64,000 nt of DNA from a bacterium (lineage in GTDB: Bacteria; Patescibacteriota; Minisyncoccia; Phycocordibacterales; UBA5272), in contig JAHFNB010000001.1 of NCBI GenBank assembly GCA_023267595.1, positions 8,837-72,836 of the forward strand. Direction: 5' to 3'. Made by a program: the position numbers and the translations under genes. Shown here piece after piece: positions 6,035-50,748 of this stretch (position 1 is its first letter; every line of letters begins with the position of its first letter). Below the pieces are notes generated by a model that did no database searches, was not told the origin of the DNA, and was given only the letters and a program-made list of their open reading frames with translations.

Positions 6035-6056
6035 CTCTAGTTTACTTTAATCTATA

Positions 6057-6160
6057 ATTATTCCAGATACGCGAAGTCTAGAGATTTTTGGAAGAAGACG
6101 TACATATACTAGTACGGCGACTGAGAAAAATCTCGTAGCGACAAAGTAGATGGGATGATT
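6057..6160. repeat. ~103-bp intergenic repeat element, copy 1
   Basis: ~93% identical to 19146..19248; contains nested inverted repeats gagattttt/aaaaatctc and cgtac/gtacg. Confidence 0.6.
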
Positions 6161-8900
6161 ATAGATTAAAGTTGTATTTTTTGAGTATTTCTGACTCCAC
6201 TTCTTCCTTTGGTCTTCCATACGTTAAATAACTTAATTCTTTCAGAGAATCGATTCGTGACATATCCCCTATCTTTGGTGGTAACGTAACAATATCAAAT
6301 GGTTTTCTTGGTTCACCATTAACAAGCATTTTTATATATGCATGGTAGTTTTCTATCTTCATGATATCTCCTGCAGTAAATGTAGGTGCAAATTGTTGCT
6401 CGAGATACTGTGCATCGTCTCCTCCTACACGAAATACGGCAAGTGATCCAACATTTCCAAATACTGCACCTTTTATATCTTCTGGTAATTGTGCAATGTA
6501 TTGATGTGCTACTGAAAGAGATAATCTGTACTTGCGTGCTTCAGATAAAATACTTGCGATACTTGGTGTCGTCACATTTTGGAATTCATCAATATACAAG
6601 AAAAAATCTGGTCGCTCTGTTGCGTTCACACGTGACATTGCTGCTTGAGATAATTTACCCACCAAGATAAGTCCAAGCAAATGAGAATTAATATCTCCAA
6701 GTCTTCCTTTTGAGAGATTTACTAGAAAAATCTTTTTCGTATCCATAATTTCTCTAAAATTAAAAGCAGATTTTTCCTGTGCAATAATCGGCCTCATAAT
6801 ATCATTTGACATAAACACATCAAACTTACTGTTAACATACTGTGTCCAGTTGGAGAGACCTTGCTCCCCTGTTGTTTTCTCTGCATTTTGCCAAAATTGT
6901 AAAAGAAGTGGATTTTTTGTTTTTGATAATTTGTAATCTCTGAAATCTTTATCAGAAAATACTCGTGATATTTCCAAAAGTGTATTTCCACTTTCTGGAT
7001 GTTCCATAACAAGAAGTGCTGCATTTCTAAAATATGATTCAAATCCTGGACCGCCGGAGACTTTCATATCAAATAATTTATTGAAAATGCCGAGTAATTC
7101 ATTAACCACAAATGTCTTTTGTTCGGGAAAATTCTTATCATATTCAAGCATATTTAATCCCATTGGACGCTCTATATAACTCGGATCAAAGTAAATGACA
7201 TCTTTGGTGCGCGCAGGTGGGATATGTGACAAAATATCTTGAATATCAGATCCATGAGGATCGATAAAGCAACACCCTTCCCCATTTTCAATATCTTGAA
7301 TAATCATATTTTTCAAGATAGATGTCTTTCCTGTTCCTGTTTGACCAATAACGTATAAATGTCTCATTCTATCCTCACGAGCAAAATGTATCGTTTGTTT
7401 TTGATCACGGAAATTATTTATACCAAGTACAATTCCTTCTGTTGGCATATCCATTGGGGCTTGGGCTGCTTTTTGTAACCTGACATTTGCCACATCTTTT
7501 GTCTGCATTGGAAAATGAAATACTGATGCGAGTTCAGAGATGTTAAGTGGGTAACTTTCATCTTCATTCCAAAGACGATATGAAAAGCGGTGAAGCAAGG
7601 CTTTTTGTTTTCTCCCATCTACTTCTTCCCACACAATACTATTTCCTCCAACAAGAGAAAACTGTGCGAACGCATTCTCCAAATCAGAACGTATTGCTTG
7701 TGCACGTGCAAAGTCTGCGGCTGAAGCAATAATACGAATATTTGTTTCAACAATTGTCTTTGCTAATTTTTCTTGTACATATTTCATTGCATTTTCTTCT
7801 ACCAATGATGGTTTCTTTTCTTTTTCCTTCTCTAATTGTTCTTTTGTTTTTGATGCTGAAAACATTTCACCAAGCACATGAAATGTTTCTTTAAGTGTGC
7901 TTTGTTTATCGATTACTCGTTTGAGTGTTTCTCCTTTTCGTAAATCCTCGAGCATATCACCGTATCGTTTTGCAAAGACATCTCCCGATGGACGTATGAG
8001 TAACTGTAGTGCAAGTCCTTCATTATCTTTTGCAATTTTTGTAAATGTTGAAAGAATAAGAGACATTGGATCGGCTTCCATGTTTTCATAGGTTTTTATA
8101 GGTAATGCAGGATGCGTACTTGCCTTAGCATACGAAGCAGCCGTGACTGCATGACTATGAAAAATATTATAATCATCTTTACACTCACGAACTTGTGCAG
8201 TTGGAAATACACCTAACACCACTTTTTCAAATAACGCCGCATAATCAATGTGTATTGCACAATAAAATGATGTCGTCGTAGTTCCGTTTGCTACACCCAG
8301 TTCAAGGGTATAATAATTCTTCTCTTTATTTGTTGCATCACTTGCGAGTGCCTGCATGGATGCATACCACTGTTCCATAAGTGCCATCATTTCCTTCATA
8401 CTCTTCACATTTCCCTCTGTTCCTTCTGGGAGTATCACTTCAAACAACTTCATATGAAGTGCTTTCCACTCATCTTTTGCAAGATTATTATCCATCACAT
8501 GACCAGAAAGAAGATACTGTACTAAGAATCTTTCAAAATCATCTTCCACTTCTGGATCATTTAATTCTTGCGCCATAATAAAGGCATTTTTCACCCCTTT
8601 ATCTGCCATAACTTGAGCAAGCATAGAAACTTGAGCATCAGTCTCTCGTGGAGATAACCATTCAAGCAATCTGTGTTTCTCTCCACTTGTTAATTGCACT
8701 TGTGGTGCAAGTATTTTTTCTTCTGGAACTTCTCTATAATCACGAACCACTTCACGAGCATGATCACTCTCTTTGAATCGATTTTCGAATCCTTTTGCAC
8801 GCTCAATTTTATTCGCAAGTTGCAAGCGTAAGTGTGCCACCTCTTCTTCAGGAGTAGTAAGCAGTGTATCCATACTGTACAGTTTACAGTTTACGGTCAA
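6159..8900 (-). CDS. FtsK/HerA/VirD4-superfamily P-loop ATPase (T4SS coupling-protein-like) with unknown ~450-aa N-terminal domain
   Basis: Walker A VIGQTGTGKTS, IDPHG, FDPSYIERPMGLNML, Walker B FFLYIDEFQN, RKYRLSLSVAHQYIAQL; no TM segment; starts 23 nt after map stop. Confidence 0.55.
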   Translation of the reverse strand: MTVNCKLYSMDTLLTTPEEEVAHLRLQLANKIERAKGFENRFKESDHAREVVRDYREVPEEKILAPQVQLTSGEKHRLLEWLSPRETDAQVSMLAQVMADKGVKNAFIMAQELNDPEVEDDFERFLVQYLLSGHVMDNNLAKDEWKALHMKLFEVILPEGTEGNVKSMKEMMALMEQWYASMQALASDATNKEKNYYTLELGVANGTTTTSFYCAIHIDYAALFEKVVLGVFPTAQVRECKDDYNIFHSHAVTAASYAKASTHPALPIKTYENMEADPMSLILSTFTKIAKDNEGLALQLLIRPSGDVFAKRYGDMLEDLRKGETLKRVIDKQSTLKETFHVLGEMFSASKTKEQLEKEKEKKPSLVEENAMKYVQEKLAKTIVETNIRIIASAADFARAQAIRSDLENAFAQFSLVGGNSIVWEEVDGRKQKALLHRFSYRLWNEDESYPLNISELASVFHFPMQTKDVANVRLQKAAQAPMDMPTEGIVLGINNFRDQKQTIHFAREDRMRHLYVIGQTGTGKTSILKNMIIQDIENGEGCCFIDPHGSDIQDILSHIPPARTKDVIYFDPSYIERPMGLNMLEYDKNFPEQKTFVVNELLGIFNKLFDMKVSGGPGFESYFRNAALLVMEHPESGNTLLEISRVFSDKDFRDYKLSKTKNPLLLQFWQNAEKTTGEQGLSNWTQYVNSKFDVFMSNDIMRPIIAQEKSAFNFREIMDTKKIFLVNLSKGRLGDINSHLLGLILVGKLSQAAMSRVNATERPDFFLYIDEFQNVTTPSIASILSEARKYRLSLSVAHQYIAQLPEDIKGAVFGNVGSLAVFRVGGDDAQYLEQQFAPTFTAGDIMKIENYHAYIKMLVNGEPRKPFDIVTLPPKIGDMSRIDSLKELSYLTYGRPKEEVESEILKKYNFNL

Positions 8901-10355: not shown

Positions 10356-11009
10356 TTATACTCCGTAGACTTTCTTCAATGTTTCTTGATCACCCTTTAA
10401 TCGTCTTCCTTCTTTAATGTTTTTATATAGTTTATATCCACTGTAAGCCAAGTAACTTGCTCCTGCGACAATAGGCAACACTCCAAATGTACTAGCAGCC
10501 AATATACCAGTACCTGTAACGACTCCTGTACTACCTGTTGCTAGAGTGCTAATAAATCCTGGAACTAATGATGCATTTACTAATATATAACCCATACCGG
10601 CTACAATAACTGGTAATGTAACTGCTTCCATTGCACCAAAGGAAGAAGATGTACTGGTAGATTTTATAATAGTCTCTGCTTCTCCATAATTTTTTCCCTG
10701 AATATTTGGATATTTTTGAAGAAGTTCATTATGTGCAACATCACTTTCATTTGGTGTAATTGGTGATACTACCTCTTTTTTCTCTGGAGTATTCATTGCT
10801 ACTGGCGTAGCAATTTGTTCAGGAGGTTTTGAGAGTGTTTCAGTTAATTTTTCTACACGCATTGTATCTTCTGACTTTGGTAATTCTGGAATTGGTGTCT
10901 CGAACTTTGCATCTAGGTTTTGTAGAAGAATTGCGGGAGATTCTACTTGTGCTGCCTCTTCAACAGATACTGGCTCAAAATCAATACTATTATTTGGTTT
11001 ATTTTCCAT
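10356..11009 (-). CDS. glycine-zipper membrane protein, paralog B of tandem pair
   Basis: N-terminal MENKPNNSIDFEPVSVEEAAQVESPAI identical to paralog A; acidic middle; Gly/Ala/Ser-rich C-terminal TM segments; start set at conserved MENK. Confidence 0.55.
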   Translation of the reverse strand: MENKPNNSIDFEPVSVEEAAQVESPAILLQNLDAKFETPIPELPKSEDTMRVEKLTETLSKPPEQIATPVAMNTPEKKEVVSPITPNESDVAHNELLQKYPNIQGKNYGEAETIIKSTSTSSSFGAMEAVTLPVIVAGMGYILVNASLVPGFISTLATGSTGVVTGTGILAASTFGVLPIVAGASYLAYSGYKLYKNIKEGRRLKGDQETLKKVYGV

Positions 11010-11016
11010 ATTTTTA

Positions 11017-11667
11017 TTAAGCAAAAACTTTTCTCGCACGATTCGTATTAATCATATTTTTTATCTTACGCACACCCTGATATAAAAGATATGCTGCACC
11101 ACCTACTGCAATAACTGGGCCGACTACAGAAGTAGCCCCCAACATAGTCATTTCAATTGTACCACTTGTTAAAAGAGCAGAAACTCCAGATGACAAAACC
11201 CCTTGTCCTGCAGAATTTGCCGCCGCAAGTCCAAGAAGAGACAACATTCCACCACCAATCACTGTAACACCAGATACAGTGGATTTTTCTTTTATATCCA
11301 ACCTTTCAAAATCTAGACCAGATTTTACTGTATTTTCTGGTGTGTCAGATGGACCCATTTTTCTTCCATAATCACCATAACTACTCATAAGTGAATTCAA
11401 AACTTGATTTTCTTTTACTTGACCTTCAACTGTATTTTCTTCACTCTTAATTTCTGGAGATGTAGGTAATTTTTCTTGTAGTATAAGTGAATCTTTTATT
11501 TCTTGAGCACGAATTATATCTTCTGGTTTTTGATCTACAGACTTTGATACTTCGTATTTTGCATCTAAATCTTCCGGAGGAATTGCAGGAGATTCTACTT
11601 TTGCTGCTTCTTCAACAGATACTGGCTCAAAATCAATACTATTATTTGGTTTATTTTCCATATCCAA
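11017..11667 (-). CDS. glycine-zipper membrane protein, paralog A of tandem pair
   Basis: same N-terminal 27 aa as paralog B, ~75 nt near-identical at DNA level; C-terminal GGGMLSLLGLAAANSAGQG...GPVIAVGGAAYLLY. Confidence 0.55.
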   Translation of the reverse strand: MDMENKPNNSIDFEPVSVEEAAKVESPAIPPEDLDAKYEVSKSVDQKPEDIIRAQEIKDSLILQEKLPTSPEIKSEENTVEGQVKENQVLNSLMSSYGDYGRKMGPSDTPENTVKSGLDFERLDIKEKSTVSGVTVIGGGMLSLLGLAAANSAGQGVLSSGVSALLTSGTIEMTMLGATSVVGPVIAVGGAAYLLYQGVRKIKNMINTNRARKVFA

Positions 11668-16383: not shown

Positions 16384-16905
16384 ATGAATTACATTATAAA
16401 AAAGTATATACTACAGTACATGCAAATTATTTTTTACGTATTGGAAGTTATTGGACTATGGAAAATGTTTGAAAAAGCACACGTTGCAGGATGGAAAGCA
16501 CTTATTCCTGTATATAGCACATACCACAAAGTTAAAATTGCTAATCGTTCTCTTTCTTTCTTTTGGTTTATGATTTCTCCTTTTATTGGTGTATTTATTA
16601 CAGTGATATTATGGGGAATTATTGGTCTTTTTTCTTCAATACTAGGAGATACTTCCCCTCTCATTACTCTCTTCTCTGATCTAGTAAGTAGAACTGTCCC
16701 ATTTTTTGTTGGTCTCTTTGTTATCTTAGTTCTTATCGTTACACTACCACTTGGTATTATTTTGCAATATGATATTGCAAAATCATTTGGTAAAGGTGCT
16801 TGGATGACTGTAGGATTAGTCCTTGTTCCTTTTATCTGTAACTTAGTCTTAGGATACGGAAAAGCAGAATATAAAAAAATACATAGAACAAAAGAAGAAC
16901 AGTAA
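16384..16905 (+). CDS. DUF5684-like small polytopic membrane protein
   Basis: 173 aa; motif LWKMFEKAHVAGWKALIPVYSTYHKVKIA plus 3-4 TM helices; opposite strand to flanking ribosomal genes. Confidence 0.45.
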   Translation: MNYIIKKYILQYMQIIFYVLEVIGLWKMFEKAHVAGWKALIPVYSTYHKVKIANRSLSFFWFMISPFIGVFITVILWGIIGLFSSILGDTSPLITLFSDLVSRTVPFFVGLFVILVLIVTLPLGIILQYDIAKSFGKGAWMTVGLVLVPFICNLVLGYGKAEYKKIHRTKEEQ

Positions 16906-16938
16906 ATAAAAAACCAGTCCATAGGACTGGTTTTTTAT

Positions 16939-18303
16939 TTACCAAGCAATCGGCATTGCATTTCCTGTAACTGTTGTCTGTGCAGTTCCTACTACTTGTC
17001 CAGATGGATTTGTAATATTTGCAATAAATACAACATCTTGTTTATAGTACGTACTATTTGTAATCATTGCAGGAATCTCCTGTTGAGCACTATTAAGCGT
17101 AAATGGCATTGCAAACTCCTGACCACATGGAATACCTGCTACGGTTACTTGTACATTAGCAATAGGACATACTGCGTGAATACGTAATGAGTATTGACCA
17201 TAAATACTTGCATCATAGTAATTACTTGCAGGAATGTTGATGTAAAGTCTGAATAATTCACCAGAGTTTACTGGGTTCTTATTTGCAGAGATAACTACAT
17301 TACCATAGAAAGAATATGGACGTTTGATAAAGATTGGAGAAACGGCTGCGCGGAATGTAGAGGTAACACCTGCAATATCCGTAAGAGGAGTTGTGATAAC
17401 AATACGATATGAACCTTGAGCATAATTTTGTGCACATGATCCAGTACAAAGATAATCTAGAATATCTTTTGTAAGAGTAAACGTAGCAGAATTACCACTT
17501 GTTGTCATAATGTACTTACTTTGTCCAGAACTATTTTCAAGGAGAATCTGATACTGACTCGCATTAATATTATTTGTAGTCCATGTAACATTTACCGTAT
17601 CTCCTTCATTGTAATGACTGTCAGTTCCTGGTGAAGAAATAGAGAGTGTCCCTGGTTGTGGAATAAGACCATAGGTATATCCAATGTTTGGACTGTAGAC
17701 AATATTTGTACCATATACAAACGATGTATTTGTTGTTGCAGGTGTAATTACATTTGTCGTAATTGGATTGTATGAATTATATGCGGTATAGTTTGAACCT
17801 GTTGTTCCGTACGTATACGTTGGATTATTTGAGTTAGTGATGATAGTCGATGTGATATTTTTTACATATGGATCATATGTATCTACAACTGTTGTACCTG
17901 CTGAATATCCATAATCATAATTTGAATATGATGTATTGTATGTATTTGAATTGTAGGTATTTCCATTACAAAGTTGTGCATTGATTAGATCACGTGTTGA
18001 TTGTCCTACTGTACCTGTTGTAAGAAGACCACTATTTGATTGAAAAGACACAACTGCAGAATACGTAGCCGGACCAAAGTAACCATTTGGTGTTGCATAG
18101 AGATAACCACGTCCTGCTAGAAAGTTTTGAAGTGTGTATACATCTTCATTTTCAGAACCAGACTGAAGTGTACGAGTGATAGATGTACCACATCCATAAT
18201 TATTATAATCGGTAAAAATACCTGCAAAGGTAAATGTTGGAGTACTGAGGAAAAATCCCACAAATCCAAGGAGAAAAATACTGTTTTTGATTCCTGTTTT
18301 CAT
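16939..18303 (-). CDS. secreted protein: signal peptide + peptidoglycan-binding (PG_binding_1-like) domain + N/T/Y/S-rich low-complexity linker + Cys-containing C-terminal domain
   Basis: N-terminal MKTGIKNSIFLLGFVGFFLSTPTFTFA; DVYTLQNFLAGRGYL...GPATYSAVVSFQ matches PG-binding helix pattern; ~120-aa N/Y/T/S-rich repeat-like region. Confidence 0.6.
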   Translation of the reverse strand: MKTGIKNSIFLLGFVGFFLSTPTFTFAGIFTDYNNYGCGTSITRTLQSGSENEDVYTLQNFLAGRGYLYATPNGYFGPATYSAVVSFQSNSGLLTTGTVGQSTRDLINAQLCNGNTYNSNTYNTSYSNYDYGYSAGTTVVDTYDPYVKNITSTIITNSNNPTYTYGTTGSNYTAYNSYNPITTNVITPATTNTSFVYGTNIVYSPNIGYTYGLIPQPGTLSISSPGTDSHYNEGDTVNVTWTTNNINASQYQILLENSSGQSKYIMTTSGNSATFTLTKDILDYLCTGSCAQNYAQGSYRIVITTPLTDIAGVTSTFRAAVSPIFIKRPYSFYGNVVISANKNPVNSGELFRLYINIPASNYYDASIYGQYSLRIHAVCPIANVQVTVAGIPCGQEFAMPFTLNSAQQEIPAMITNSTYYKQDVVFIANITNPSGQVVGTAQTTVTGNAMPIAW

Positions 18304-19130: not shown

Positions 19131-19145
19131 TATAAAAAGTAAGAA

Positions 19146-19248
19146 ATTATTCCAGATAGGCGAAGCCTGGAGATTTTTGGAAGAAGACGTACACACTAGT
19201 ACGGCGACTGAGAAAAATCTCGTAGCGACAAAATAGATGAGATGATTT
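19146..19248. repeat. ~103-bp intergenic repeat element, copy 2
   Basis: ~93% identical to 6057..6160, same orientation; lies between rplX stop and rplE start. Confidence 0.6.
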
Positions 19249-24907: not shown

Positions 24908-26101
24908 TTATGCAATGATCTTTGTAACAACTCCTGCACCTACTGTCTTTCCTCCTTCACGGATAGCAAAACGTCCTTGTTCTTCAAGAGCAATTGGAGC
25001 GAGAAGTTTAACAGTAAACTTCACAGTATCTCCTGGCATAACCATTTCTGTTCCTGCAGCAAGCGTTACTTCTCCTGTTACGTCAGTTGTACGTACATAG
25101 AATTGTGGCTTGTAACCATTTAAGAATGGAGTGTGACGTCCACCTTCTTCTTTCTTAAGAATGTAAACTTCACATTCAAAATCAGTATGAGGCTTTACAC
25201 TCCCAGGCTTTGCTAGAACTTGTCCACGAAGAATATCTTCCTTCTTAATACCACGGATAAGAATACCTGCGTTATCTCCTGCTTGTCCTTCTGGAAGAGA
25301 TTTATTGAACATTTCAATACCAGTAACAATAGTTTTTGCAGTATCTTTAAGACCAACAATTTCAATTTCTTCGTTTAACTTGATGATTCCACGTTCAATA
25401 CGTCCTGTTACTACAGTTCCACGTCCTTCAATAGTGAAGATATCTTCTACTGGCATAAGGAATGGCTTTGCAGTATCACGTTCTGGTACTGGAATGTAGG
25501 TATCAAGTGCATTCATGAGTTCAACAATCTTTTGAGCCCAAGGATCATTGATGTCTGTTGCTTGAGATGCCTTAAGACCTGAACCACGAATAATTGGAGT
25601 ATTTGCTCCATCAAATCCTTGTTTTGTAAGGAGTTCACGGATTTCCTCTTCAACGAGTTCAATCATTTCTTGGTCATCAACCATATCACACTTGTTTAAG
25701 AATACTACGATTCGAGGCACACCAACCTGCTTGGCTAGGAGGATGTGTTCACGAGTTTGTGGCATAGGACCATCAGTTGCAGCAACTACGAGGATAGCGC
25801 CGTCCATCTGAGCCGCACCAGTAATCATGTTTTTAATATAGTCCGCGTGACCTGGAGCATCGATGTGTGCATAGTGACGAGTGTCAGTCCAATATTCACT
25901 GTGTGATAGAGAAATAGTAATACCACGGGCCTTTTCTTCAGGTGCCTTGTCAATTTCGTCTACTCCTTTTAACTTAATAGAAGCATCCTTAAGGTGAAGA
26001 ACGTTAAGAATAGCCGATGTAAGTGTAGTCTTTCCATGGTCAACGTGACCAATTGTTCCTACGTTTACGTGTGGTTTTGAGCGATCAAATGTTTCTGCCA
26101 T
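24908..26101 (-). CDS. tuf: elongation factor Tu
   Basis: [23 protein letters not shown]-motifs; full length. Confidence 0.97.
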
Positions 26102-26298
26102 ATGTTTTTGTTGGGTCTTGCCTCCCTTTTTTATAGGGGGTATTGGACTAATAAATTATATAAATAATAAAGAAACTAGTAATTTTGCTAACTCTCTCTT
26201 AGCCAAGCAAGTAAATCCGAGATAAAGTGCCAAGTGAGTGACAATGATTCTAACATATCTACCGTATTTCTGCAATGTTTATAAGTATAAAAAGAAAT

Positions 26299-26320
26299 TC
26301 CCCGCACATGTGCGGGGAAT
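26299..26320 (-). terminator. GC hairpin (ttccccgcacatgtgcggggaa) downstream of tuf
   Basis: perfect 9-bp stem; second hairpin gattcgga-tttc-tccgaatc at 26322..26341; same tccccgca hairpin motif at 45253 and 49199. Confidence 0.5.
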
Positions 26321-26352
26321 GATTCGGATTTCTCCGAATCGATCGGCTATTG

Positions 26353-26829
26353 CTAGCCGGAATTACCGAAGTCGGCGCCGACCAGTCCGGTATTGATCGC
26401 GGTGATCATCGTGTGTCCGCGATAGACATCCGGCGGTGGCGTTGCCGGACTGTTTTCGGCCATGAGGCCGGCGTTCGCGCGCGCGTCGATATAGAAATAA
26501 ATGGCACTGCCCGATCCATGGTCTCCGGCGGAGTACGTCGGAGGTGCCGCGCCCTGCGTCGGTATCGCCTCGAGATCGTGCCGGATGATCATGATTTCGC
26601 CGCGGTGGCCGAACTGGCCGGAATCGATCACAATCGGCACGCCGCCGACGATTCCCGAAACCTGGATTCGCGCGCCGGTGGCTTTCTTGTCACCTTTGAT
26701 CACCAGTGCGTTATCCTGCGCACCGAAACCCGGCGGTGCGGCTGCCGGATTGCCGGGAGGCGCCGCCATGCCGATCGAGGCTGCCATGGCAAGCACTGCG
26801 CCTGCCATGCACATCAGGAGTTTTCTCAT
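26353..26829 (-). CDS. signal-peptide protein encoded in a >60% GC island (probable foreign gene or chimeric insert)
   Basis: 158 aa, MRKLLMCMAGAVLAMAASIGMA signal sequence, Pro/Ala/Gly-rich; GGGGA-type RBS 8 nt upstream; GC content sharply different from flanks. Confidence 0.5.
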   Translation of the reverse strand: MRKLLMCMAGAVLAMAASIGMAAPPGNPAAAPPGFGAQDNALVIKGDKKATGARIQVSGIVGGVPIVIDSGQFGHRGEIMIIRHDLEAIPTQGAAPPTYSAGDHGSGSAIYFYIDARANAGLMAENSPATPPPDVYRGHTMITAINTGLVGADFGNSG

Positions 26830-27023
26830 TGCATTTCCCCTTGTAAAGAACCCTCCTCCTCCCTTCCCTCAAATGAGGGAGGGCAAGAGGGTATTTACAA
26901 ATACTACAACGTACTTTTAAAAAAGACAAGGTAATGTGGATAACATAATCTAGAGACAATATTATACTTATACTCAGATAAAGTTCTCTTTTTTATTAAC
27001 TTAAATCTAATTTTTATAATTAT

Positions 27024-27227
27024 ATGAAAGCATTACACATGATTGCGTTTATCCTTCTTGTTGTCGGAGGATTAAACTGGGGGCTAAGTGCCATTGGATA
27101 CAACGTCATTGATATGTTACTTGGTGCGGGTTCAACACTTGCACAAGTGGTATACATCCTCGTTGGCCTTTCTGCACTTCTCATTCTTGTTACTCACAAA
27201 AGTGATTGCAAGACATGCATGGCGTAA
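27024..27227 (+). CDS. DUF378-family small membrane protein
   Basis: 67 aa, two TM helices, GGLNWGL...YILVGLSAL pattern typical of DUF378. Confidence 0.6.
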   Translation: MKALHMIAFILLVVGGLNWGLSAIGYNVIDMLLGAGSTLAQVVYILVGLSALLILVTHKSDCKTCMA

Positions 27228-27249
27228 ATATTTGTTTGGTTTACATTTT

Positions 27250-27278
27250 AAAGAGCAGCATCTACGATGCTGCTCTTT
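27250..27278. terminator. bidirectional perfect palindrome terminator between DUF378 gene and fusA
   Basis: aaagagcagcatc-tac-gatgctgctcttt. Confidence 0.55.
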
Positions 27279-27357
27279 AAAATGTTTTATTATATTTTGT
27301 ATCTTAAAAAAGATAACATTGTAGCGACAAAGTAGTTCGCCAAAATATTTTTTTAAA

Positions 27358-29502
27358 TTACTTTTTATTTTCCGCAATATCCTTTGCAATGTTTGCAGGT
27401 ACTACATCATACTTTCCAAACTCCATCGTGAAACTTGCGCGTCCTTCTGTCATTGAACGAAGTGAATTCACGTACCCAAACATTTCAGATAGTGGAACCA
27501 TAGCACGAATAACTTTATCTTGTCCCCGCTCATCCATTCCTTCTATTTGTCCGCGCTTTGAAGAAATATTTCCTGTAATATCTCCATAGAATTTATCAGG
27601 TGTTACAATTTCCACTTTCATGATTGGCTCTAGAATAACTGGCTTTGCTTTTCCTACTGCATCCGCAAGCGCCATACCTGCTGCTAACTTAAAGGCAATT
27701 TCAGAAGAGTCCACTTCGTGGAATGATCCATCGTAGACTTCACAAGAAATATCTACCATCTTAAATCCAGCAAGTGTTCCTCTATCCATAGATTCACGAA
27801 GTCCCTTTTCTACTGCGGGTACGAACTCTTGTGGAATTGCACCTCCTTTGATTGAGTTTATAAACTCAAAGTTATCATATCGTTTTGTATTCTTTGGTAA
27901 ATCTTCTTTTGCAATGGTGTAATCAATAGGTCTAATATTTATTTTCACATGACCATATTGTCCACGACCACCGGATTGCTTAATATATTTTCCTTCACCA
28001 GAAGCATTACCAAGAATAGTTTCTTTATAGGCTACTTGTGGCTTTCCTGTATTTGCTTCAACGTTAAACTCTCGCTTCATACGATCCACAATAATATCTA
28101 AGTGTAATTCACCCATACCAGAAATAATTGTTTCAAGTGTTTCTGGATCAGATGAAACACGAAATGTTGGATCTTCGATAGCAAGTTTTGAAAGTGCAAT
28201 ACCCATTTTTTCCTGATCTGCTTTTGTTTTTGGTTCCACACGCATTGAAATCACAGATTCTGGAATCACAATTCTTTCAAGAATAATTGGATGCTCTTCA
28301 GTACACATTGTGTCTGAGGTAATAGTGTCTTTCAATCCTACTGCTGCAGCAATTTCCCCAGCATATACCGTTTTCACTTCTTCTCGTTCATTTGCATGCA
28401 TTCTCAAGATACGTGATACACGTTCTTTTTTATCTTTTGTAGAGTTATAAATATAACTTCCTGCTTCTAGTGTTCCTGCATACACTCGAAAGAATGTTAA
28501 CTGCCCAACGAACGGGTCTGCCATAGACTTAAATGCGAGTGCAGCAAATGGTGCAGTGTCAGATACTTCAACTGAAATAGTCTCACCCGTATTTGGATCT
28601 ATTCCTTTTGGCGCACTAATATCAAGTGGTGATGGTAGATAATCAATAACTGCATCAAGCACGAGTTGTACTCCACGATTCTTAAGGGATGATCCACAAA
28701 ATACAGGGAATAGTTCATTTGCAATGGTTGCTTTACGAACTGCGGCTTTTAATTCTTCTATTGTAAACTCTTTTCCTTCAAGATACCCTGTCATCATATT
28801 TTCATCTGTCTCCACAATCTTTTCAATCATTTCCGCACGACGCTTCTTTGCTTCATCGAGTAATTCTGCAGGAATATCAACCATAGTTACATCCTTTCCT
28901 TTGTCTCCAGAGAATTTTGCTTCCTTCATCGTAAGGAGATCGATAATACCATCAAATTTTTCTTCTTCCCCTATTGGCATTTGCATACGCACTGCCTTCT
29001 TTGAAAGGCGATCCAAGATAGACGCATAGGCTTTATCAAAGTTTGCACCCATTCGGTCTAATTTATTGATATAGCAAATACGAGGAACAAGAGCATCTGA
29101 TGCATATCTCCAATTTGTTTCTGATTGTGGTTCTACACCTGCTACTCCGTCAAACACAACAACAGCACCGTCAAGCACGCGAAGTGATCGCTTTACTTCA
29201 ATCGTAAAGTCGATGTGTCCTGGTGTGTCGATAATATTAAAACGACATTTCTTACTTGTATCTTCTTTTGTAGAATATGTAGGGTTCCAAAATGCAGTTG
29301 TCGCAGCAGAAGTAATAGTAATACCACGTTCACGCTCTTGTTCCATCCAATCCATAACTGTATCTCCTTCGTGTACTTCACCGATTTTGTGTGACACACC
29401 TGTATAGAACAAAATACGTTCTGTTGTAGTAGTCTTTCCAGCATCGATGTGAGCAATAACTCCGAAGTTTCTTGTTTTGTTTAATGGATAATCTCGAGAC
29501 AT
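27358..29502 (-). CDS. fusA: elongation factor G
   Basis: [18 protein letters not shown]-domain and domains II-V. Confidence 0.97.
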
Positions 29503-50352: not shown

Positions 50353-50748
50353 ATGAAGATAAATTACGCTCTTATTTCTCGTATACTCATTGCACTACTC
50401 TTTGTGGTTGCAGGAGTGCAAAAAATTATTGGTTTCCAAATGATAGTTGGATATATTGGATCTCTAGGAGTACCTCTCCCTGTTATCGCGACTGCGCTTG
50501 TCATCATTATTGAAGTTCCTGTGGCAATTGCATTCGCGTGGGGATACAGAACATGTATTATGGGTATGATACTCATTGCATTTACCCTTGTTGCAACACT
50601 TCTCGTACACCGAGACTTTGCAGTTGCACCAAATATGGTGATGGCACTTAAAAATATTGCAATTATTGGAGGTATTATGGCAGCAATTATGGCGTGCGAT
50701 TGTGGAAAGTGTCCTATGAGTATGGATAGTGATTCAAAGAAGAAATAA
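50353..50748 (+). CDS. DoxX-family membrane protein
   Basis: RILIALLFVVAGVQKI... 4-TM DoxX pattern. Confidence 0.6.
   Translation: MKINYALISRILIALLFVVAGVQKIIGFQMIVGYIGSLGVPLPVIATALVIIIEVPVAIAFAWGYRTCIMGMILIAFTLVATLLVHRDFAVAPNMVMALKNIAIIGGIMAAIMACDCGKCPMSMDSDSKKK

Follow-up and report, generated by a model that had tools for sequence, protein, structure and literature searches.

A GC-Rich Orphan Gene for a Putative Secreted Protein between fusA and tuf of a Nomurabacteria-Like Bacterium of the Candidate Phyla Radiation

The question raised by this locus is why a short block of GC-rich DNA should stand between tuf and fusA, the genes for the elongation factors EF-Tu and EF-G, in a bacterial genome of low GC content. 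The window analyzed here is the 64,000-nucleotide stretch at positions 8,837 to 72,836 of contig JAHFNB010000001.1 (GenBank assembly GCA_023267595.1), and all coordinates refer to this window unless another contig is named. An initial annotation had described a GC-rich block encoding a secreted protein and had attributed it either to a very recent acquisition from a GC-rich donor or to a chimeric join in the assembly. We find that the block is real sequence, that it carries a single orphan gene (designated orf158), and that a diverged counterpart occupies the same site in a related contig, L089. We favor, with moderate confidence, the reading that orf158 is a horizontally acquired, fast-evolving gene for an orphan secreted protein that was gained before the window organism and the L089 species split. 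The locus is framed by the following features.

26297..26893, no strand assigned: high-GC block of 597 bp, about 61% GC within a window of 36.7% GC, with borders taken from 30-bp windows
24908..26101, minus strand: tuf (EF-Tu)
27358..29502, minus strand: fusA (EF-G)

The compositional anomaly was borne out by windowed GC analysis, which gave a sharply bounded block of 597 bp and 61% GC. In the rest of the 64 kb, the GC fraction of 200-bp windows was determined to have a mean of 0.366, a standard deviation of 0.042, and a maximum of 0.50. Inside the block the same measure reaches 0.66, about 7 standard deviations over the mean, and this is the sole site of the 64 kb above 0.50. The open reading frame (ORF) of orf158 is itself 62.7% GC. 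The interval between the end of fusA (27358) and the start of tuf (26101) was measured as 1256 bp, in agreement with the gap of about 1.25 kb reported initially.

The composition changes abruptly at the edges of the block, as would be the case if a fragment from a GC-rich organism had been mis-joined into a contig of a candidate phyla radiation (CPR) bacterium. However, both junctions and the block itself were found to be 100% identical in four other assemblies: two MEGAHIT assemblies, ENA ERZ27279977 (36-kb contig) and ENA ERZ27279942 (57.5-kb contig), and the Logan contigs of two different runs, SRR14366791 (covering 26093-28150) and SRR14366796 (covering 26091-27583). Taken together, these data come from two or more sequencing runs and two types of assembler, and within single short Logan contigs CPR sequence lies on both sides of the insert. 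A GC-rich positional orthologue was also found at the same site in JGI metagenome 3300064746, which is independent of and unrelated to these data. A de Bruijn chimera would require two chance shared k-mers, repeated in every data set. The chimeric join is refuted, and we give it virtually no credence. Such artefacts do occur in these data, in that the ERZ27279977 contig has a divergent 269-nt end inside fusA. This contig end (L001 1-269, k141_5452823) encodes a different EF-G and joins the window at 28125, at the conserved GMGELHLD motif. The assembly probably switched there between strains or species, or formed a chimeric end, at a conserved k-mer; the feature is unconnected with the GC-rich block. 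The block is genuine and ought not to be removed from this metagenome-assembled genome as contamination.

The next question is what the block encodes. The gene and its putative signal peptide are located as follows.

26353..26829, minus strand: orf158, coding sequence of a 158-residue orphan protein, with a mature part of about 136 residues that is 40% Pro+Ala+Gly
26764..26829, minus strand: putative signal peptide, residues 1-22, MRKLLMCMAGAVLAMAASIGMA followed after the cut by A, with a basic n-region, a hydrophobic core, small residues at -3 and -1, and no lipobox

The GC fractions at the first, second, and third codon positions of orf158 (GC1/2/3) were determined to be 0.635/0.528/0.717, with a chi-square p of 0.002 for periodicity, and the frame stays open over the full length in just 0.9% of shuffles of the ORF. 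The order GC3 > GC1 > GC2 is the expectation for a gene of a genome of about 60-65% GC, and it is seen in the minus-strand frame of the block only. The 194-residue mirror ORF on the plus strand had no homologues in our searches. The mirror-strand ORFs had been taken for artefacts of composition, and these results agree. Genes of the host have GC1/2/3 of about 0.55/0.38/0.25, and tuf and fusA themselves have a GC3 of 0.25. The codons used by orf158 are GCC/GCG, GGC, CCG, ACC/ACG, and ATC, whereas the host uses GCA, GGA, CCA, ACA/ACT, and ATT. The codon usage is therefore of the high-GC type recognized initially, with a GC3 of 0.72 versus about 0.25 in the host and with opposite codon preferences.

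RNA genes frequently account for GC-rich islands in AT-rich genomes, and the block could instead be a non-coding, GC-rich structured RNA or DNA element in which the ORF is a by-product of few stop codons. There are long ORFs on both strands, and the whole block folds far better than its shuffles on either strand (z of -6.7 and -7.0). However, neither ORF core exceeds its shuffles in folding stability (z of -1.0 for orf158 and -0.7 for the gene of L089), and the excess stability must therefore come from the terminal hairpins. There is no Rfam match inside the block even at E ≤ 1, and a search of the whole window at gathering thresholds returned four tRNAs and nothing else. In both species the codon periodicity reaches significance (p = 0.002 and 0.0002), a homologous ATG precedes a conserved signal peptide, and the terminator comes shortly after the end of the ORF. 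The orf158 block thus resembles GC-rich structured RNA genes in being a local GC peak at an intergenic site between housekeeping genes, but it differs from them in having neither an Rfam family nor core stability and in having codon periodicity and a signal peptide. The structured-RNA reading was rejected on the absence of Rfam matches, the core z-scores, and the codon periodicity, and a non-coding nature of the block is, in our estimate, very unlikely.

The N-terminus of the orf158 product reads MRK, LLMCMAGAVLAMAAS, and IGMA/A (the slash marks the predicted cut), which by rule-based criteria is the n/h/c layout of a Sec signal peptide of type I. The mean Kyte-Doolittle hydropathy is 2.1 over residues 4-20 versus -0.06 for the remainder of the protein. 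The 158-residue ORF and the signal-peptide-like N-terminus described initially are thus both present. A start at M1 is supported by the spacing of the ribosome-binding site and by the start of the L089 orthologue (MKRVL...). We infer that the product would be exported by Sec and cleaved after Ala22, which would place a protein of about 136 residues, 40% of them Pro, Ala, or Gly, outside the cell. The AlphaFold2 single-sequence model of orf158 has a predicted local distance difference test score of 35 and is uninformative.

The gene also has its own predicted expression signals.

26901..26929, minus strand: tentative sigma-70-like promoter of orf158, TTGTCT-17 nt-TAGTAT, weak, with 8 of 12 consensus matches and a score under the scan threshold
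26855..26890, minus strand: 5' untranslated region (UTR) hairpin CCTCTTGCCCTCCCTCA / TGAGGGAAGGGAGGAGG, with 17-nt arms that are 82% complementary, followed by a purine-rich GGGAGGAGG tract
26836..26842, minus strand: ribosome-binding site AAGGGGA, with a 6-nt spacing to the ATG (the L089 orthologue has GAGGAG about as far from its start)
26287..26341, minus strand: tandem terminator of orf158, consisting of the hairpin GATTCGGA-GAAA-TCCGAATC, the perfect palindrome ATTCCCCGCACA/TGTGCGGGGAAT with 12-bp arms, and then TTCTTTTTAT

The RBS-like GGGGA noted initially is present 6 nt before the ATG, and the bounding hairpins were confirmed at 26297-26320, 26322-26341, and 26855-26890. The first of these is the perfect 12+12 palindrome, which is followed by TTCTTTTTAT on the minus strand and was scored as terminator-like (26320..26297); the second has an 8-bp stem. 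The transcription unit would comprise an AT-rich upstream region, the 5' UTR hairpin, the ribosome-binding site, the 158-codon ORF, and a double-hairpin intrinsic terminator. From the codon periodicity, the ribosome-binding site, the signal peptide, and core folding no better than that of shuffles, we regard the block as a complete and self-contained protein-coding transcription unit.

A second copy of this arrangement was found in L089, the 29-kb contig from JGI metagenome 3300064746, whose EF-Tu is 97% identical to that of the window organism. The layout is the same, and a second GC-rich block, with a GC fraction of 0.62-0.70 versus 0.32-0.44 in its flanks, lies exactly in the corresponding slot. 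Its ORF (L089 4364-4750) encodes 128 residues beginning with MKRVL, has a GC fraction of 0.69 and GC1/2/3 of 0.67/0.59/0.82 (periodicity p = 0.0002), and uses the same set of GC-ending codons as orf158. The mature part is again 40% Pro+Ala+Gly. The signal peptide, assessed by the same rules, reads MKR, VLVVAAGVALAVAFF, and TARA/A. The signal peptides of the two proteins are significantly similar (MRKLLMCMAGAVLAMAASIGMAAPPG vs MKRVLVVAAGVALAVAFFTARAAPPD), with an alignment score of 52 compared with a shuffle mean of 20 and a standard deviation of 3.9, and none of 2000 shuffles reached 52. The 5' flanks are homologous over the AT-rich region next to the DUF378 gene, the 5' UTR with its CTTGCCC, hairpin, and GGGAGGAGG elements, and the CAATGA start context. 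On the 3' side, L089 has a GC-rich terminator hairpin of differing sequence followed by the same ATTT.TTTTTATAC tail, and the tuf promoter and leader are homologous. The CTTGCCC...TTT.AGGG...GGAGG pattern of the 5' UTR is kept in L089 and is missing from relatives with other cargo at this site, and it is therefore considered part of the shared insert. L089 also has, between fusA and the DUF378 gene, a gene of 274-280 residues (L089 3031-3873, minus strand), which has no counterpart in the window; its product has a membrane anchor at the N-terminus and matches no Pfam family.

How the gene reached this site depends on what relatives carry there. The remainder of the interval between fusA and tuf is occupied by the following native features.

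27024..27227, plus strand: gene for a small DUF378 membrane protein (PF04070, Pfam E 7e-14), native, low in GC, divergent from orf158, and forming the other edge of the variable slot
27243..27285, no strand assigned: bidirectional terminator between the DUF378 gene and fusA, with a 20-pair stem
26102..26260, minus strand: native tuf promoter and leader, which can be aligned across the window, L088, L089, and L094 (in which the slot is empty) and are kept with or without the block

The initial account of the gap was correct as to the secreted-protein block and left out the native DUF378 gene and the bidirectional terminator. It presupposed that fusA and tuf normally lie side by side, which is not valid for this phylum, in which the two genes are often 0.4-2.8 kb apart or unlinked, with assorted small genes between them, none compositionally odd. 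The host is a Paceibacteria ("Nomurabacteria"-like) CPR bacterium, as judged from EF-Tu: the best matches among GTDB representatives are Patescibacteria of the Paceibacteria type with at most 81% identity, and relatives in a large protein collection are 99%, 97%, 97%, and 94% identical, some of them labeled Candidatus Nomurabacteria.

By means of the clade-specific tuf leader GACCCAACAAAAACATATGGC, 17 further loci with EF-Tu 82-95% identical were recovered. The gene order of the clade is fusA, DUF378 on the opposite strand, a variable slot, and the tuf promoter; DUF378 orthologues sit between fusA and the slot in L089, L094, L101, L093, and L098. The slot ranges from 0.44 to 7.5 kb. It is empty in L094 (0.44 kb) and spans about 2-2.7 kb in L101 and L093, where it holds a PG_binding_1 protein of about 380 residues (Pfam E 7e-10 in L101) or a closely similar 380-residue ORF (L093), with or without an apparent toxin-antitoxin pair, recognized by sequence resemblance, and an MGMT-like gene. 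A PG_binding_1 gene of about 380 residues is found in the slot of L101, L093, L098, L103, L106, and the P0007 contig, a 97%-identical relative. In L098 (L098 3484-8440, Ga0208375_1000809) the slot extends to 7.5 kb. Its contents are another foreign insertion at the same site and comprise genes for an IS30-like transposase (HTH_38 + rve), a STIV_B116-like protein, and a TrmB-like regulator, together with orphan ORFs that lie in a 2.4-kb stretch with 45-56% GC, where the background is about 33%. Since the content of the slot differs among relatives, the slot is regarded as a hot spot for insertion and replacement.

A comparison of the tuf-fusA junction among related genomes, which had been proposed initially, found a diverged version of the gene in L089 and none elsewhere. 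In the 17 relatives and P0007 there is no GC-rich gene upstream of tuf and no window above about 53-58% GC. The gene is therefore patchily distributed at a syntenic locus, its carriers being the window organism and L089 only. A neighbor-joining tree of EF-Tu groups the window with L088 and L089 and places the PG_binding_1 carrier P0007 as their sister, a grouping that is only suggestive, as it comes from a single gene and has no support values. L088 (ENA ERZ27279942 k141_7821861) is a closely related strain or species from the same sample as the window organism, with EF-Tu 99% identical and the tuf region 91% identical in nucleotides. Its contig ends 153 bp upstream of tuf, just short of the position of the block.

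A few observations on neighboring features may be recorded here. In the 5' leader of tuf, a hairpin CCCCCT-ATAAAAAA-GGGAGG at 26121-26140, about 20 nt before the tuf ATG, is conserved in L088 and L094, and L089 has a different complementary pair instead (CTGCTTGCATTTGCAGGCGG). The 16 nt before the tuf ATG (GACCCAACAAAAACAT) are invariant in the clade and include no obvious Shine-Dalgarno sequence. Elsewhere in the window, at about 16384-18303 (corresponding to L001 10092-12011), the ribosomal protein operon is broken after L5 by a PG_binding_1 gene of 454 residues and a DUF5684 gene on the opposite strand; the relatives listed above have their PG_binding_1 gene, of about 380 residues, in the DUF378-tuf slot instead.

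The simplest reading of this distribution is that the gene was gained once, in a shared ancestor of the two carriers. We propose that orf158 is a genuine chromosomal single-gene islet of high GC content, located in the variable slot between the DUF378 gene and the tuf promoter. The gene would have entered the slot by horizontal transfer from a GC-rich donor before the two species diverged, and would have replaced the PG_binding_1/MGMT-like cargo seen in other relatives. From then on, the body of the gene would have changed extremely rapidly, with the signal peptide and expression signals retained. Of the very recent horizontal gain put forward in the initial annotation, the horizontal origin is still the best reading of the foreign composition and codons. 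The words "very recent" are not supported, because L089, a low-GC relative whose flanking genes differ from those of the window at a synonymous divergence (dS) of about 1.1-1.4, carries a positional orthologue with homologous ends; such a homologue had been set beforehand as the counter-test.

Several results weigh against this proposal. The GC-rich donor expected initially was sought with both the 158-residue protein and the block, and none was found in the protein, contig, plasmid, or phage sets. In all, about 15 billion proteins contained neither a donor nor any other homologue of orf158. There was no family match in Pfam, NCBIfam, or PHROGs, and a word-indexed search of a database of 5.8 billion protein clusters returned orf158 itself and no credible homologue. 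Three matches at E of about 1e-4 (Calx-beta, MAM, and low-complexity repeat proteins) came out of an exhaustive HMMER scan of 1.84 billion representatives, but these were rejected as spurious upon pairwise inspection, the scores having been summed over the repeats of long proteins. Searches with both proteins found nothing in JGI metagenome contigs or viral contigs. Plasmids and phages, searched by blastn and tblastn, gave a chance match of 48 nt only, and sequence and profile searches of the PDB gave nothing significant. The L089 ORF likewise has no Pfam match, and its protein was not present in the protein collection by exact look-up. There is no integrase or transposase gene in the gap and no tRNA target, the nearest tRNAs being 17 kb away, and there are no flanking direct repeats beyond chance 9-mers. 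The mature parts of the two proteins are only marginally homologous, with weak colinear similarity, 29% amino acid identity overall, a BLASTP E of 0.03, and a shuffle p of about 0.1, and the gene bodies have no blastn match to each other.

A further difficulty concerns the persistence of the GC content. The dS between window and L089 was determined to be 1.07-1.43 for the flanking genes and 0.55 for tuf. Under a rough two-state model applied to 531 four-fold degenerate sites of fusA, S10, L3, L4, and DUF378, G/C sites had a probability of 0.29 of being G/C in the other species as well, versus a background of 0.21. The memory of GC state (lambda_total) is about 0.11, or about 0.33 per branch, and four-fold GC has thus been nearly fully randomized. 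From an ancestral GC3 of 0.8-1.0, this model leads to an expectation of about 0.40-0.46, whereas the observed values are 0.72 for orf158 and 0.82 for L089. A single ancestral gain with passive amelioration does not explain the high GC3 in both species. The alleles may be younger than the split, the GC content may be actively maintained, or the model may fail at this locus.

If the alleles are younger than the split, each species would have obtained its present copy recently from a diverse and as yet unsampled pool of GC-rich donors, such as a GC-rich host or GC-rich Patescibacteria. Alleles would be swapped by recombination through the conserved ends (the 5' UTR and signal peptide on one side and the terminator on the other), and GC3 would be high because the copies are young. 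The GC3 values far over 0.40-0.46 fit such recurrent acquisition, as do gene bodies that are unalignable at the DNA level between homologous ends, a slot that takes foreign DNA in relatives (the IS30-like transposase, STIV_B116-like gene, and 45-56% GC segment of L098), and the existence of GC-rich Paceibacteria (54-59% GC) among the tuf relatives. However, neither the 15 billion proteins nor the contig collections that were searched yielded a member of a donor pool, replacement would have to occur precisely at the same borders twice, and the EF-Tu tree is compatible with a single gain. We regard recurrent acquisition as unlikely.

In the other case, orf158 would be a lineage-specific gene of whatever ultimate origin whose GC-richness is actively maintained, by codon or mRNA selection or by GC-biased gene conversion at a recombination hot spot. 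Its composition would then be a property of function or mechanism and not the signature of a donor. High GC3 does last in both orthologues despite saturated synonymous divergence in the flanks, both use the same set of GC-ending codons, and the highly conserved genes on either side of the slot could serve as anchors for frequent recombination. We know of no mechanism, however, that gives a GC3 of 0.7-0.8 in a single gene of a genome with a GC3 of 0.25. The highly expressed tuf and fusA of the host have a GC3 of 0.25, the ORF cores have no special mRNA structure, and the gene is absent from all other relatives examined. Active maintenance in a lineage-specific gene is judged to be quite improbable. 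There is some small chance that a GC3 of 0.7-0.8 is held across a speciation with saturated dS while the protein turns over almost completely. This would imply either that a non-neutral process keeps GC high, for example selection at a recombination hot spot or GC-biased conversion specific to the gene, or that alleles are repeatedly re-imported from a GC-rich partner.

Among known systems, the best class for the orf158 block is that of horizontally acquired ORFan islets occupying variable slots between core genes. It shares with other single-gene ORFan islets the abrupt shift in GC and codon usage, its own expression signals, a patchy distribution, and a slot of variable content. Unlike them, it has no detectable donor or homologue and no integrase, att site, or tRNA, and its atypical composition is kept in two species at dS > 1 while the gene body is nearly unrecognizable. 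Atypical composition and patchy distribution were thus found at this locus, and an identifiable donor and signatures of mobility were not. In groundwater Patescibacteria, horizontal transfer and genomic islands were reported to be mostly intra-phylum, with identifiable partners and islands of several genes (PMC12455944). The present case is similar in that foreign DNA would have entered a streamlined Patescibacteria genome, but it involves a single orphan gene with a composition far from that of the recipient and no partner found. Horizontal transfer into Patescibacteria is already documented (PMC12455944). The donor-like codon usage kept in two diverged species is the only odd aspect. With respect to the canonical str operon (rpsL-rpsG-fusA-tuf), the order S12-S7-fusA ... 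tuf-S10 operon is retained, but fusA and tuf form two transcription units in this clade, with a terminator, the divergent DUF378 gene, and the variable slot between them.

A small secreted protein that diverges far faster than its flanking genes also calls to mind the targets of diversity-generating retroelements (DGRs) and the hypervariable surface proteins of CPR bacteria. Unlike in DGR targets, the divergence of orf158 is not confined to a C-terminal variable region and runs through the entire mature protein, and the window holds no template repeat. A blastn-short search for a second copy of any part of the block in the 64 kb returned the block itself and chance matches of 12-20 nt only; the 20-nt match, at 50572, falls within an unrelated membrane-protein gene. 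The DGR reading was rejected as far as it could be tested, the search having covered template repeats in the 64-kb window and no search for a reverse transcriptase having been made.

Two other repeats were observed in the window. A 105-nt direct repeat of 92% identity is located at 6056-6160 and 19145-19247, the second copy lying in an unusually long L24-L5 spacer. Both copies form long imperfect hairpins (plus-strand z of -5.9 and -3.4) and have no Rfam match; the repeat may be a small structured RNA or an element resembling repetitive extragenic palindromes or miniature inverted-repeat transposable elements. A 156-nt direct repeat of 81% identity occurs at 10856-11011 and 11508-11663, 650 nt apart.

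CPR bacteria generally live attached to other cells, and the orf158 product would most plausibly act outside the cell, at the cell surface or the interface with a host. Fast sequence turnover together with a conserved export signal would fit a surface or interface protein, or one that is loosely constrained and partly disordered. The locus is a further clear instance of a foreign orphan gene, encoding a putative secreted protein, in a streamlined CPR genome, and it marks the DUF378-tuf interval of a Nomurabacteria-like clade as a hot spot of insertion. If the gene is repeatedly re-imported, the partner could be the host of the episymbiont, and the locus would then be a genomic marker of host association. 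Should more carriers confirm the retained GC3, orf158 would become a test case for the upkeep of atypical composition in bacterial genes and might point to a GC-rich partner of these episymbionts.

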